A stretch of DNA of 38,707 nucleotides. It comes from a virus. Taxonomy: Duplodnaviria > Heunggongvirae > Uroviricota > Caudoviricetes. The DNA lies in the IMG/VR virus record IMGVR_UViG_2529292997_000008, positions 1-38,707 of that record; one strand, written 5' to 3'. The notes under the pieces are model-generated. The model had not been told where the DNA came from, did not search any database, and was given only the letters and a program-made list of their open reading frames with translations. Both the position numbers and the translations under genes were made by a program. Positions 8,260 through 38,707 of the stretch are shown one piece after another (positions within the stretch are counted from its first letter, which is position 1; each line of letters begins with the position of its first letter).

Positions 8260-8678
8260 TGAGTTTGAATTCAATTACGCTGGGCGGGAATATCGGAAAC
8301 GACATGGAAGTTCGCTACACGCAAAACGGTAAAGCGATTGGTAGTTTTCCGTTAGCTGTAACGAATGGCTACGGTGATAACAAGCGGACAATGTGGATCA
8401 CTTGCCTGGTATTTGGTGAGCGTGCGGAAAAATTAGCGCCACATATCCGCAAGGGTGGAAAAATAGTGGTAAGCGGTCGCCTGGATGTTCGGCAATATGA
8501 CCGGAACGACGGCACGAAGGGGACTGCGGTAGAAGTGGCGGTTAATGAATTTGAATTCATGAATGTTAACCAACAAGGCCAGCAGCAAGGACAGCAGCAG
8601 AAAGCGCCGCCGCAGCAGCAGAATAATAACGGGAATAATCCGCCTCCGATGGACTTCGACGACGATATTCCTTTTTAG
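8259..8678 (+). CDS. ssb: single-stranded DNA-binding protein
   Basis: 139 aa; OB-fold core, Gln/Gly/Pro-rich linker, acidic C-terminal tail DFDDDIPF. Confidence 0.9.
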   Translation: MSLNSITLGGNIGNDMEVRYTQNGKAIGSFPLAVTNGYGDNKRTMWITCLVFGERAEKLAPHIRKGGKIVVSGRLDVRQYDRNDGTKGTAVEVAVNEFEFMNVNQQGQQQGQQQKAPPQQQNNNGNNPPPMDFDDDIPF

Positions 8679-8694
8679 AATCAATGTGTTAGCG

Positions 8695-8973
8695 ATGAGT
8701 GATTATCTAAAACCGCCGCCGCAACCACGAACAAAAGAGCAAGTATTAAAAGAAGCCCGCGATCAAATCGATCGCGGGCTTTTTTTATGCGGCACGGCAG
8801 CGGAACGGATGGCAAAAAGATTTAGTGACCTGTACGCAAAACAAATATGGTTCGACAACTGGCAGGCAAGTTTTTATCCGCTGCAAAGAAAACCGGATAT
8901 GCATTGGCCTGAATATGTCGATCCGCGTATGCGCAAATATCGCGGGCGTATGGGCCAGGTTATTAACGATTAA
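8695..8973 (+). CDS. hypothetical protein
   Basis: 92 aa from first ATG after ssb stop; co-directional compact operon. Confidence 0.5.
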   Translation: MSDYLKPPPQPRTKEQVLKEARDQIDRGLFLCGTAAERMAKRFSDLYAKQIWFDNWQASFYPLQRKPDMHWPEYVDPRMRKYRGRMGQVIND

Positions 8974-8987
8974 TGAGGTATTAAATC

Positions 8988-9212
8988 ATGATCGAAGATA
9001 AAGAAGTTGACAATGAAATTCCTGACGGCGCTGATGAACTTATCACTTTCGGTGGCGGGCTGTACGAGTTTGAAACGTCGGCTGGGTGGACGGATAAGTG
9101 GCCTTTCCCAACGCGCCAGGAATTAAGCGTTCGTAAATCATTTGGCGAAGATGCCGAACGGCTGGCTAATAACAAGTGGCTTAATAAGTTTATTGCGGAG
9201 GGTGGCAAATGA
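8988..9212 (+). CDS. hypothetical protein
   Basis: 74 aa; GAGG RBS. Confidence 0.5.
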   Translation: MIEDKEVDNEIPDGADELITFGGGLYEFETSAGWTDKWPFPTRQELSVRKSFGEDAERLANNKWLNKFIAEGGK

Positions 9213-9322
9213 ACCTTGCAAAAATTGCCGCATTGCTTGCGGCTTTGTCTATCGCTGTGCTGTATCTCAGCGCATCTCTTTATATCACGGCAGCGATCAT
9301 TAAACTCATTACTAACATGTGA
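9209..9322 (+). CDS. small hydrophobic peptide (37 aa)
   Basis: MNLAKIAALLAALSIAVLYLSASLYITAAIIKLITNM; GGAGGGTGG RBS; ATGA overlap with upstream stop. Confidence 0.4.
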   Translation: MNLAKIAALLAALSIAVLYLSASLYITAAIIKLITNM

Positions 9323-9330
9323 GGCCAATT

Positions 9331-9450
9331 ATGAAAGTCGGTAAGGATATTGTGACTGTCGCGTTTTGCATTATTTGCTTCCTGTTTGTGTTTGTTTCTT
9401 GTGGCGCATTTGCTGCGCTGGTTAGCTTTATTTTCAGAGGGTTGCTGTGA
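9331..9450 (+). CDS. small hydrophobic peptide (39 aa)
   Basis: MKVGKDIVTVAFCIICFLFVFVSCGAFAALVSFIFRGLL; GAGG RBS; stop overlaps next start. Confidence 0.4.
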   Translation: MKVGKDIVTVAFCIICFLFVFVSCGAFAALVSFIFRGLL

Positions 9451-11471: not shown

Positions 11472-11664
11472 ACATTACATGGAATGGAAAATTCCAGAAG
11501 CAGCAACAAAGGCAGCGCCAGGAAATTTTTCTGGCGTTTATTTTTATATGGATGGCAAATGGTATTTCGGCAGCAGGCCGGATCACTACTATCAAGAAAT
11601 ATGCAAGCCTCACGTATGGGATATTAAAGAGCGCGTGAAAGGCGGGGTAATTGAGGACGTTTAA
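11461..11664 (+). CDS. hypothetical protein
   Basis: 67 aa track ORF. Confidence 0.45.
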   Translation: MKFKHYMEWKIPEAATKAAPGNFSGVYFYMDGKWYFGSRPDHYYQEICKPHVWDIKERVKGGVIEDV

Positions 11665-12150: not shown

Positions 12151-12690
12151 ATGAAAAATGATTACGGCGGCAGTCATACGCCGAAAGAAATAAAAGACCT
12201 ATGGCAGACGCCGAAACCTGTTTTTAGAGGAATGGATCGGGAATTCGAATTCGTCGCGGACGTGGCGGCAAACAAGGCAAATGCATTAGTTCCGCGATAT
12301 ATAACCGAAGAAATGAACACGCTTAATTACCCGTGGGGAGCGGTGGCGATGCCTGGTGAATATGTCTGGATGAATCCACCATATTCTAATCCGGGACCAT
12401 TCGTTGATAAGGCGGCGTTTGAACACCACCGAAATCATATTGGCTGTGTAATGTTATTGCCAGCCGACACTTCTGTTAGTTGGTTTATGAACGGCGTGGA
12501 GACGGCAAATGAATGCCGATTAATCACGCGCGGGCGGCTGGCGTTTATTAATGCCGCGACGGGTAAACCAGCAAGCGGAAACAATAAGGGGAGCTTGTTC
12601 TTGATCTGGCATCCACGGTGCAGACATGAATGTATTTTCACGCAGATAACACGTAAAGAGCTATATGCAAGAGGTGCAGATAATGACTAA
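12151..12690 (+). CDS. DNA N6-adenine methyltransferase, phage Dam family
   Basis: 179 aa; catalytic NPPY motif (WMNPPYSNPGPF); size and layout typical of small phage Dam-family enzymes. Confidence 0.75.
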   Translation: MKNDYGGSHTPKEIKDLWQTPKPVFRGMDREFEFVADVAANKANALVPRYITEEMNTLNYPWGAVAMPGEYVWMNPPYSNPGPFVDKAAFEHHRNHIGCVMLLPADTSVSWFMNGVETANECRLITRGRLAFINAATGKPASGNNKGSLFLIWHPRCRHECIFTQITRKELYARGADND

Positions 12691-13015
12691 GGCAGCAGAT
12701 TTATTGAGACTTGCAGCGGAAACCATAGAGCAAAGAGGTAAACAAAACGGCTACGACAAAAAAGAGGAAAAATCAGCGCCAAAAATAGCCACTATTTACA
12801 ACGCTAAGAAGGGAGCAGATTTAACCCCGCTTGATGTATGGGATCTGCTAATTTGTCTCAAGGAGGCGCGTTTAGAGGCCATTTTAAGCAATAAATCAGA
12901 TCCGACAGACACGCTAATTGATTTGATTAGCTATAACGCGCTAAAAGCGGAGCAAATATTAACGGAGCGGGAGGAAGCACAAAGAAAGAAACGGGCTGTT
13001 TTGATATACCGTTAA
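12683..13015 (+). CDS. hypothetical protein
   Basis: Track ORF 12665 trimmed to ATG after AGAGGTG RBS; overlaps methyltransferase stop. Confidence 0.5.
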   Translation: MTKAADLLRLAAETIEQRGKQNGYDKKEEKSAPKIATIYNAKKGADLTPLDVWDLLICLKEARLEAILSNKSDPTDTLIDLISYNALKAEQILTEREEAQRKKRAVLIYR

Positions 13016-13153
13016 ATTGCGGCTGTAAGAATGCCTCAATACCAGGCGACTTAATCGCCAGCAGCAAGGTAACGCTAAATAGTGTCCTTGCAAACAGGCT
13101 TGATGGTAAGTGTGATAACGAATCACTACTACGCGCGGCGGGGTATCATAAAA

Positions 13154-13657
13154 ATGGAAAGGGTGACAATTGACAGGTTATTGGCCTGCATTTATGTCGC
13201 CGTTTTCGTGATCATTAACCTTATTGTTAACCACTGCGGCCCGTGGGTAATTCCGATCACCACGGTAGCCGCCGTGTGCGTCAATATGATGATCCGTGAC
13301 TTCCTGTTATATGACGGCGGCCTGAAATGGTCGGCTACAACATGCGCCGCCGCTGGCGCAATCACGGTGCTGATAAACTACGATGCCGGGATGGTGGCGA
13401 TCGCGTCATTCGTCGCGGTTGTTTCCGGTGCGCTTATTTCTGGCGGTGTTTACCGGATTTTACCTGGCGATTTCGATTCAAAACGCTGGCCTGCGAATAT
13501 AGCGTCCGCCATTGGTGATGCGTTAATTTTTCCCACGCTATCGTTTATGGCATTTATGCCGGAAATATCAGCTATGCAATTCATCTCAAAAATGGCGGCT
13601 GTAACGGTGATCACTATCATCATTCGTCGCTATTTTACGTTCGAGGGTAGGAAATGA
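13154..13657 (+). CDS. polytopic membrane protein, possibly YhhQ/VUT-like transporter
   Basis: 167 aa, about 5 hydrophobic helices; loose resemblance to YhhQ from memory only, unverified. Confidence 0.45.
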   Translation: MERVTIDRLLACIYVAVFVIINLIVNHCGPWVIPITTVAAVCVNMMIRDFLLYDGGLKWSATTCAAAGAITVLINYDAGMVAIASFVAVVSGALISGGVYRILPGDFDSKRWPANIASAIGDALIFPTLSFMAFMPEISAMQFISKMAAVTVITIIIRRYFTFEGRK

Positions 13658-14418
13658 GTGGGCTTAGAAATTGGGTGGTGTGGTCGCTGTACGACGGCAG
13701 CGGGTACGCCGTTAAAGATTGGGCCGACGCTGGCTATAAGTGTTATTGTTTCAATTATGACGGCGCTAATCATGGCGATTATGAAGGCGTCAAGATCATT
13801 CATCCTAACATTGAATATGTCAACGTATGGATTGACAGCCATTTCCTGGTAATGTTCTCCCCTGAATTGTCTGTTTATCCAGATCCTGACATTATCCTGG
13901 GCTTTCCTCCGTGCGACGATCTTGCGGTGTCCGGCGCTCGTTGGTTTTCAAGCAAGCGTGAAAAAGATCCTTACTTCCAGCAGAAGGCGGCATACAACGC
14001 AAAACTGGTAGAAACGCTTGCTGACATGTACCACGTCCCGTGGATGGTGGAAAACCCGGTTGGAGCACTGTCAACGTTATGGCGTAAGCCGGATTTCATT
14101 TTTAATCCGTGCGCTTACGGTGGCTACCTGCCGGAAGATGATAAGCATCCAGCTTTCCCGGAATACATCGCCGACCGCGACGCCTACACGAAGAAAACTT
14201 GTATCTGGTGCGGCAACGGATTTAAACAGCCGCTATTTCGGCCTGTACCAATGCCTGATGAGTGGGAAGATAGTAAGCAGCACGCGAAGTTAGGCTGGAA
14301 GTCGAAGCGCACTAAGATGATCCGCTCACTCACGCCGCGAGGATTCGCCCGTGCTGTATTCCTGGCTAATGACCGGGCAATCACGCGGACTACTCTTAAC
14401 CGCGTTTTACCGGATTGA
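13654..14418 (+). CDS. compact C5-cytosine methyltransferase-like protein with PCD variant of motif IV
   Basis: 254 aa; motif I-like LYDGSGYA, motif IV GFPPCDD (PC then D instead of Q), motif VI MVENPVG; ATGA overlap with upstream gene. Confidence 0.55.
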   Translation: MSGLRNWVVWSLYDGSGYAVKDWADAGYKCYCFNYDGANHGDYEGVKIIHPNIEYVNVWIDSHFLVMFSPELSVYPDPDIILGFPPCDDLAVSGARWFSSKREKDPYFQQKAAYNAKLVETLADMYHVPWMVENPVGALSTLWRKPDFIFNPCAYGGYLPEDDKHPAFPEYIADRDAYTKKTCIWCGNGFKQPLFRPVPMPDEWEDSKQHAKLGWKSKRTKMIRSLTPRGFARAVFLANDRAITRTTLNRVLPD

Positions 14419-14440
14419 TGTTTACAAAATGGCGTCATTG

Positions 14441-14456
14441 TGTGATGCGGATCACA
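14441..14456. promoter_or_regulatory. CRP-type palindrome TGTGATGCGGATCACA
   Basis: Perfect TGTGA-N6-TCACA, lying between inverted TACAAAATGG motif copies in the 160-bp intergenic region. Confidence 0.4.
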
Positions 14457-14578
14457 TAATGGCGCTTTATTGTTTGTTCGCATGTATCCGTTTTGTATAC
14501 TTCAAACAAACAAAATGCTCTTTAAAAATCCGGTAACGCTGAAATGCGTAAAAATCACCTGAAAAAGGAGAGAGCATT

Positions 14579-35374: not shown

Positions 35375-36034
35375 TTAATTCCAGTTGCAAGCGTTTTTCA
35401 CTTTGTCGATGTGGTTATAAAGACCATCAATGTTAAACACTGCTTTCTCAATGTCGCCAGCTTCCGGCACTACTTCAATGATGAATTGTTTTTCGTTAAC
35501 CAGTTTTTTAATCATTGGGATGGCTTTTTTGCCGTCCCATAATCCAAGAGCTTTATAATTAGTTGACCGCCACCACTCAGTAGCTACAGCTTTGTGAACG
35601 CCGATCCGGTAGTTAATATAAGTAGTGTCCCCGGCGTCAGTTACATGGTGTGACCATGCTACGAACATTTTTGTTTTATTACCCTGGCAAGCGATTGTTA
35701 ATACCGGTTTATTCTTATCCTGTGCCTTCAGTGTCGGGAAAGCATCAAGACTTCCGCTGAATTGTTCTGCTTTCACAAAAAGGAATACGTTTTTTGCGTC
35801 CTGCATATCATCTTTTCTTTCAACTACAAGCCACTGTTTACCAGCATTTTCTTTTTCTAACTGTGCATCGTATGCGGCTTGTTTTGCTTGTTGTTCTGCA
35901 AGCCATTTAGCATTTTTCTCTGCTAATGCTTGTTGCTCTTGATTGGTCACTATAGGCGCTTTTTCATTATCCTCATTGCAACCAACCAGACCCAATACCG
36001 CCGCAATCATTGCCACTTTTGCTAACCGTTTCAT
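35375..36034 (-). CDS. moron lipoprotein (219 aa)
   Basis: Signal peptide plus lipobox LVGC; Gln/Ala/Lys-rich linker; GGTGGG RBS; own promoter at 36082-36121. Confidence 0.7.
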   Translation of the reverse strand: MKRLAKVAMIAAVLGLVGCNEDNEKAPIVTNQEQQALAEKNAKWLAEQQAKQAAYDAQLEKENAGKQWLVVERKDDMQDAKNVFLFVKAEQFSGSLDAFPTLKAQDKNKPVLTIACQGNKTKMFVAWSHHVTDAGDTTYINYRIGVHKAVATEWWRSTNYKALGLWDGKKAIPMIKKLVNEKQFIIEVVPEAGDIEKAVFNIDGLYNHIDKVKNACNWN

Positions 36035-38540: not shown

Positions 38541-38568
38541 CACAGAAAACCCCCAGCTAGGCTGGGGG
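38541..38568 (-). terminator. candidate convergent terminator for minus-strand transcription from beyond the window
   Basis: CCCCCAGC-TAG-GCTGGGGG hairpin with T-run on the minus strand only. Confidence 0.4.
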
Positions 38569-38707
38569 TTCCGGAAAGCTTTCAGCTTTAAGCCAGTTAT
38601 TAAAACCCCTTTTGATTTGTTAAAACACCTTGCGGTCTGGCAACTGCAAGTGTCAAACAAGAAATCAAAAGGGGGTCCCAATGGGGAACGAAAAGAGCTT
38701 AGCGCAC

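Follow-up and report, generated by a model that had tools for sequence, protein, structure and literature searches.

The protein YhhQ of E. coli imports the queuosine precursors preQ0 and preQ1; in its family, COG1738, not a single residue is conserved throughout, and other purines may also be transported (PMC5372724). Homologues of YhhQ import queuine (PMC11570991), and homologues encoded by phages are known (PMC6884629). In phage CAjan, yhhQ is part of a dpdA/preQ0 cluster, and its deletion left DNA modification unaffected (PMC7544227). This gene is the published analogue of the phage dpdA-vut cassettes, in which a gene for the TGT-like DNA transglycosylase DpdA (phrog_887) is combined with a gene of the phage VUT branch (phrog_4899), as in Pectobacterium phage PEAT2 (gp18/gp19), Acinetobacter phage AB3P2, and the T1-like coliphages Opt-719 and LHE71. 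A further described group are the S-components of ECF systems, such as RibU and ThiT (TCDB 2.A.88, VUT/ECF), which are small six-helix substrate-capture proteins.

The gene analyzed here lies in a stretch of viral DNA of 38,707 nucleotides (IMG/VR record IMGVR_UViG_2529292997_000008; the whole stretch is termed the window in the following). The phage belongs to the mEp021/MagusPhagus group, also referred to as the mEpimmI group (PMC11893012). In these phages, the annotation of the gene reads "hypothetical" or "membrane protein", and the gene is not discussed in the description of the group (PMC11893012). The assignment to the VUT family is new for the mEpimmI phages; phage YhhQ homologues as such were already known as accessory proteins of DNA modification with 7-deazaguanines, and some relatives of the protein are already annotated as VUT family proteins.

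A matching prophage was found in E. coli M15 (NZ_CP185789.1, approximately 572088-626526), where it is integrated between dgcM and ynaN/zntB. The four-gene module at positions 12151-14418 of the window is 99.9% identical to the corresponding region of this prophage. The prophage also contains an IS903B insertion and a cor exclusion gene near the tail-fibre end. Of 5426 complete E. coli genomes, 35 contained the module, as did 46 IMG/VR contigs. A contig scan of a one-genome-per-species set detected no relatives of the query; the E. coli representative of that set is assumed to be free of the prophage. The features of the locus are compiled in Table 1.

Table 1. Features of the window, and residues of the transporter at which DpdA-linked homologues and the clade of the query differ
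Feature	Position	Strand	Description and evidence
Upstream terminator-like hairpin	11514-11538	+	Position of TERM_3 of mEp021
Dam-type DNA N6-adenine methyltransferase	12151-12690	+	PF05869, E 2.4e-52; phrog_111
DUF6378 protein	12665-13015	+	116 aa; PF19905, E 1.3e-7; phrog_9871, phrog_474
Spacer	13016-13153	+	138 nt, from the shortened DUF6378 ORF to the transporter start
Transporter CDS	13154-13657	+	ATG to TGA, 167 aa; ORF list and sequence
ATGA overlap	13654-13657	+	Transporter stop and start of the C5-methyltransferase-like gene share bases; read from the sequence
C5-cytosine methyltransferase-fold protein	13654-14418	+	254 aa; phrog_757, E 4.6e-87; AF2, Foldseek
Downstream terminator-like hairpin	14431-14466	+	16 pairs, then a T-rich tail; corresponds to TERM_4 of mEp021
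ORF inside the tail module	35375-36034	-	219 aa; type VI secretion VasI domain (PF11319, E 1.2e-15)
STnc490 Hfq-binding sRNA	38548-38671	+	Rfam, gathering level, 146 bits, E 4.6e-30; immediately behind the tape-measure gene
Transporter residue	36		Asn in 99% of DpdA-linked sequences; Thr in 4/4 clade members
Transporter residue	44		Asp in 98% of DpdA-linked sequences; Asn in 4/4 clade members
Transporter residue	52		His in 91% of DpdA-linked sequences; Leu, Phe or Ile in the clade
Transporter residue	96		Asp in 95% of DpdA-linked sequences, equivalent to YhhQ D126; Ser or Ala in the clade

The transporter ORF is a genuine gene. The RefSeq call in the E. coli M15 prophage has exactly the same boundaries, and a Shine-Dalgarno-like GGGG run at 13140-13143 is positioned 10 nt upstream of the ATG. 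A GTG start at 13082 would result in a protein of 191 aa; it was rejected, as the ATG is favored by the alignments of homologues, by the RefSeq call, and by the upstream GGGG run. Minus-strand ORFs of 57-70 aa within the gene were without support and were set aside. In direct comparison to mEp021, the gene is 90% identical at the DNA level and 96% identical at the protein level, with a dN of 0.017, a dS of 0.459, and hence a dN/dS of about 0.04. Intact copies were found in 44 of the 46 IMG/VR contigs; they comprise 37 DNA alleles and have a pN/pS of 0.06. The gene is under strong purifying selection.

The view of the original prediction that the gene is embedded between two methyltransferase genes was correct, because not only the upstream Dam-type protein (PF05869) but also the downstream 254-aa protein has a methyltransferase fold, in the latter case of the C5 type. 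A Pfam scan and a PDB sequence search with the 254-aa protein gave no match. Its motifs FDGSG, PPC-DLAVSG, and ENP could be recognized, its family profile touches motifs I-IV of DNMT3B, and its AF2 model (pLDDT 87.9) matched the catalytic domains of DNMT3A/B in a Foldseek search (E 6e-8). We found 2302 homologues of this protein, several of which are named DNA cytosine methyltransferase in their source records. As side aspects, the protein is short for a C5 methyltransferase, and members of its family are mostly missed by Pfam PF00145. We also considered that the 254-aa protein could be a cryptic DpdA, which was rejected because of the C5-methyltransferase fold and because there is no BLASTP similarity to the DpdA of PEAT2.

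The DUF6378 protein upstream of the transporter has 116 aa in the window, compared to 165-170 aa in mEp021 and MagusPhagus, and it gave no match in a PDB sequence search. The spacer that follows it in the window is hypervariable in alignments with relatives and corresponds to the 3' tail of the DUF6378 gene. Among phages that are otherwise 85-92% identical, this tail is a hypervariable mosaic segment. At the junction of the DUF6378 and transporter genes, a 20-nt overlap is the commonest arrangement (34 of 45 related loci), and the 138-nt gap occurs in three. An overlap of the transporter start with its neighbors, which had been claimed originally, is thus found in most relatives but not in the window, where it is the stop that overlaps with the start of the next gene. 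This ATGA overlap is kept in 43 of the 44 intact relatives and is consistent with translational coupling from the transporter to the C5-methyltransferase-like gene. The proposed operon coupling to both methyltransferases can be upheld for the downstream side, whereas coupling to the upstream gene is absent in the window. An Rfam scan of positions 12900-13300 had no match, and therefore no preQ1 riboswitch was found there.

The upstream hairpin is likely the 5' boundary of the methyltransferase/transporter unit, and a few small ORFs without assigned function lie between this hairpin and the module. On its downstream side, the module is followed by genes for NinG, RusA, and a Q-like antiterminator. 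The transporter gene is part of a transcription unit of the early lytic phase and does not have a position that is expressed during lysogeny. Farther away in the window, an STnc490 sRNA and an ORF with a VasI domain were recognized (Table 1), and the latter may be a moron gene.

As to the protein family, the original prediction had tentatively named a YhhQ/VUT-like protein. Single-sequence searches for such a relationship all remained below significance: Pfam Vut_1 (PF02592) scored 12.9 bits (E 0.15), which is below the gathering cut-off of 27.2 bits, a limit that is set for practical and not for biological reasons; a BLASTP comparison with E. coli YhhQ gave an E-value of 0.26; and an NCBIfam search had no match. 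The sub-threshold Vut_1 alignment was full length, covering residues 13-157 and profile positions 6-149 of 152. The protein matched phrog_4899 with an E-value of 1.8e-46 over residues 2-163, and tblastn identified proteins with 29-35% identity in 14 other phage records, several of them annotated as "VUT family protein". The phrog_4899 homologues of PEAT2 and AB3P2, which were found by tblastn with the query at E-values of 5e-12 and 2e-10, are above the Vut_1 cut-off with 38-39 bits. An exhaustive phmmer search resulted in 145 cluster representatives at E<=1e-3, and 80 of these constitute the family alignment. Vut_1 was matched at E<=1e-3 by 76 of these 80 aligned homologues, and the profile of the 80 sequences aligned with E. 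coli YhhQ over 140 columns in hhalign (93.8% probability, E 1.7e-7). At the level of the superfamily, the prediction was thus borne out by the Vut_1 matches of the homologues, the hhalign result, and phrog_4899, the similarity to YhhQ being evident with the family profile and not with the single sequence.

The motifs of the family and YhhQ correspond to each other: ANL of the family aligns with SNY of YhhQ, GLDLxxRD with ATDLTVR, and AxAS...D..VY with ATAS...D..VF. The family motif N...DS..FP..AF corresponds to the segment around YhhQ D154, and the lysine of QF.AK corresponds to YhhQ K186. All family-invariant residues (N22, G29, R48, D49, N115, D122, F131, and K146) are kept in the query, of which D122 and K146 are the equivalents of YhhQ D154 and K186, and R48 is the equivalent of the arginine in the YhhQ sequence TDLTVR. 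The query resembles YhhQ as a six-helix protein with a colinear core of about 150 residues. It differs from YhhQ in its length (167 aa versus 221 aa), in the lack of detectable pairwise similarity, and in having Asn44 and Ser96 at the positions of the TDL aspartate and of D126 of YhhQ. Moreover, it is a putative transporter that is encoded by a phage, without the context of a Q pathway or riboswitch. The protein is very probably a divergent member of the YhhQ/QPTR family (COG1738, Vut_1) that belongs to the phage branch phrog_4899.

Approximately 22 of the 145 representatives (P0029, P0038, P0045, P0052, P0055, P0061, and others) are about 300 aa long, as their VUT domain is extended at the C-terminus by about 130 aa. 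These extensions share homology with each other, begin with a signal-like hydrophobic stretch, and often end near an aromatic residue. One protein of the scanned set matches DUF5020. It is conceivable that the extension is an outer-membrane partner that has been fused or is made by read-through.

The 167-aa product is a polytopic membrane protein, as had been predicted, with a GRAVY of 0.94. The number of about five hydrophobic helices has to be corrected: there are six hydrophobic stretches, six transmembrane helices are noted in the mEp021 record (TMHMM and Phobius), and six membrane spans are also seen in the AF2 model. This model was all-helical and had a pLDDT of 94.3 and a pTM of 0.88, with helices at residues 2-28, 30-74 (two membrane spans), 76-102, 107-131, and 136-160. 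In a Foldseek search against BFVD, the three best matches, one of which is a "Putative vitamin uptake transporter", had probabilities of 0.99-1.0 and TM-scores of 0.5-0.6 with weak E-values of 0.013-0.08. Against the PDB, which has no YhhQ structure, the best matches were the ECF S-components RibU and ThiT (TM-scores of about 0.47-0.50, probabilities up to 0.94, weak E-values of about 0.4). These are the solved structures closest to the query; however, there is no sequence match between the query and solved S-components, and a PDB sequence search with the VUT profile yielded only weak chance matches to Tim22. Genes for EcfT/EcfA partners do not occur in the annotations of mEp021 and the M15 prophage, and E. 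coli K-12 is not known to have an ECF module.

In the mainstream of the phage branch, the VUT gene is closely associated with dpdA. Seven phrog_887 proteins encoded next to phage VUT genes were used to construct an HMM for DpdA, and 80 IMG/VR loci with mainstream homologues were located using a 14-sequence alignment. In 74 of these 80 loci, DpdA is encoded adjacently on the same strand, usually directly upstream and with overlapping frames, and in at least two of the remaining six the VUT gene is at the end of the contig. The pairing was also found in all seven isolate phages examined. Because of this near-obligate pairing, import of the DpdA substrate is the natural function to assume for the mainstream phage branch. 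The query has the same PHROG assignment (phrog_4899), the same size, and the same helix layout as the VUT proteins of these cassettes, but its phage has no DpdA, neither adjacent nor elsewhere, and the gene is coupled to the C5-methyltransferase-like gene instead. With the DpdA HMM, no match with an E-value below 0.1 was obtained in the window, in bases 1-50000 of mEp021, in the M15 prophage, or in the 46 related contigs. The same regions and contigs contained no homologues of Tgt, QueA, QueC, QueD, QueE, and QueF when the E. coli proteins were used as seeds. Neither Pfam and PHROG scans of the remaining unassigned ORFs nor the annotations of mEp021 and the M15 prophage revealed DpdA or Que genes. 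The original prediction had named 7-deazaguanine pathway genes elsewhere in the phage as a check, and no homologue of DpdA, Tgt, or QueA/C/D/E/F turned up; as a preQ1 riboswitch was not found either, its suggestion that a precursor for DNA modification is imported is unsupported.

The contigs of the three nearest representatives, P0009, P0014, and P0020, also gave no hit with the DpdA HMM. P0009 is 54% identical to the query and is found in the same Dam-DUF6378-VUT-phrog_757 module. In the case of P0014 (47% identical; locus 8516-9363), the VUT-like gene precedes a tandem pair of phrog_2510 paralogues and, after these, an N6/N4 DNA methyltransferase gene, and this lineage represents a second methyltransferase association without DpdA. 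The gene of P0020 (37% identical) follows a DNA ligase gene in a phage contig of 128 kb. The closest DpdA-linked relatives of the query are proteins of T1-like coliphages with 35-40% identity, which suggests that dpdA was lost in the lineage of the query.

In a neighbor-joining tree, the query, P0009, P0014, and P0020 formed a separate clade; these four lineages are only 29-54% identical. Residue conservation, which was computed over 81 DpdA-linked sequences, differed from this clade at the four positions listed in Table 1. The positions of Asp44 and Asp96 align with aspartate residues of E. coli YhhQ, and the joint loss of Asp44, His52, and Asp96 was observed only in the clade of the query, in which it is a further difference to the dpdA-vut cassettes. 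The exchanges are suggestive of an altered specificity or coupling mechanism of the putative permeases. The examined proteins of T1-like coliphages, which are DpdA-linked, also have Ser or Ala in place of Asp96, and the family members of about 300 aa are variable at Asp44. The loss of Asp44 and Asp96 as a proof of a new function was therefore downgraded, as each change occurs singly elsewhere, including DpdA-linked members.

The missing DpdA partner and the sub-threshold Pfam score could in principle mean that the ORF has arisen by chance or is the decaying remnant of a former dpdA-vut cassette. Such decay is effectively refuted by the selection data, that is, by the low dN/dS and by the intact copies that persist in many alleles with a similarly low pN/pS, and the conservation of the protein in lineages with only 37-54% identity to the query also speaks against it, which leaves this explanation practically negligible. 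It is quite improbable as well that the polytopic membrane protein has been co-opted for something other than transport, such as superinfection exclusion, interference with the host YhhQ, or a perturbation of the membrane. Small membrane "moron" genes are common in phage early regions, acidic and polar residues have been lost from the helices, and a metabolic partner is lacking, all of which would fit such a role. However, the whole six-helix VUT core is kept, together with N22, R48-D49, N115, D122, and K146, the confident AF2 model matches a transporter fold, and the gene belongs to an early lytic unit and is not in a position expressed during lysogeny.

If the protein is a transporter, the VUT fold could have been kept for another small substrate, for example a nucleobase, a nucleoside, or a vitamin-like compound, from which the phage or the methyltransferase module would benefit, and queuosine precursors would then not be transported. 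This neo-functionalization is in line with the clade being monophyletic and alone in lacking Asp44, His52, and Asp96 together, and the presence of the same or similar replacements in four such distant lineages suggests that the new state is under selection. That DpdA is missing in all four contexts of the clade, and that COG1738 might accept other purines and has no residue common to all members (PMC5372724), points in the same direction. As each substitution also exists singly elsewhere, the three residues are not proven specificity determinants, and the context does not name a candidate substrate; we regard this explanation as unlikely, albeit one to be taken seriously. The original idea that a phage enzyme installs the imported base or nucleoside precursor in the phage DNA, resulting in a hypermodification that involves the neighboring enzymes, would agree with the conserved ATGA coupling to a C5-methyltransferase-fold gene, with the recurrence of the same four-gene module around the 54% identical homologue, and with the wider family being overwhelmingly paired with a DNA base-exchange enzyme. 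We nevertheless consider it improbable: homologues of DpdA, Tgt, and QueA/C/D/E/F are encoded neither in the prophage nor in its relatives, the neighbors belong to ordinary and very widespread phage methyltransferase families, as seen by the 2302 homologues of the C5-like protein, and other members of the clade occur in different contexts. It would be highly speculative to assume that the DpdA-less clade represents a re-purposed VUT permease that has co-evolved with the translationally coupled enzyme of C5-methyltransferase fold, the DUF6378 protein perhaps being involved as well, and that provides a non-queuosine substrate for a DpdA-free route of DNA or nucleotide modification. If this were true, a previously unrecognized phage modification module would exist in common gut coliphages.

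We infer the transport activity, the substrate, and the physiological role of the protein from the comparisons described above. The protein is probably a transporter, namely a six-helix inner-membrane permease of the YhhQ/QPTR family. In its mEp021-like temperate coliphage, the gene would share an early transcription unit, which is flanked by terminators, with the genes of the Dam methyltransferase, the C5-methyltransferase-like protein, and the DUF6378 protein, and its translation would be coupled to that of the C5-methyltransferase-like gene. In most phages, such a permease is tightly combined with DpdA in a dpdA-vut cassette, of which it is the second part, and it presumably feeds 7-deazaguanine bases of the preQ0/preQ1 type to DpdA. 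For the gene in the window, homology speaks for a base permease. A DpdA-independent role is favored here because the phage has no recognizable enzyme that would use a 7-deazaguanine base in DNA. Most likely, although with moderate confidence, we are dealing with a base permease that has lost its role in DNA modification. It would take up a base of the purine or 7-deazapurine type while the phage develops, and the imported base may be used only by host enzymes, for example by TGT and in the queuosine salvage in tRNA, or the substrate may have drifted. A 7-deazapurine as the actual substrate is a tentative assignment that we regard as somewhat doubtful. E. coli has its own yhhQ and synthesizes preQ0 de novo, which counts against the need for a second importer.

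The phage VUT branch is almost always welded to dpdA, and one conserved orphan sub-branch in common gut coliphages is not. This orphan sub-branch, with mEp021 growing on E. coli K-12, is a natural test of a possible VUT role that is independent of DNA modification, be it the salvage of host Q-tRNA or the transport of another substrate.
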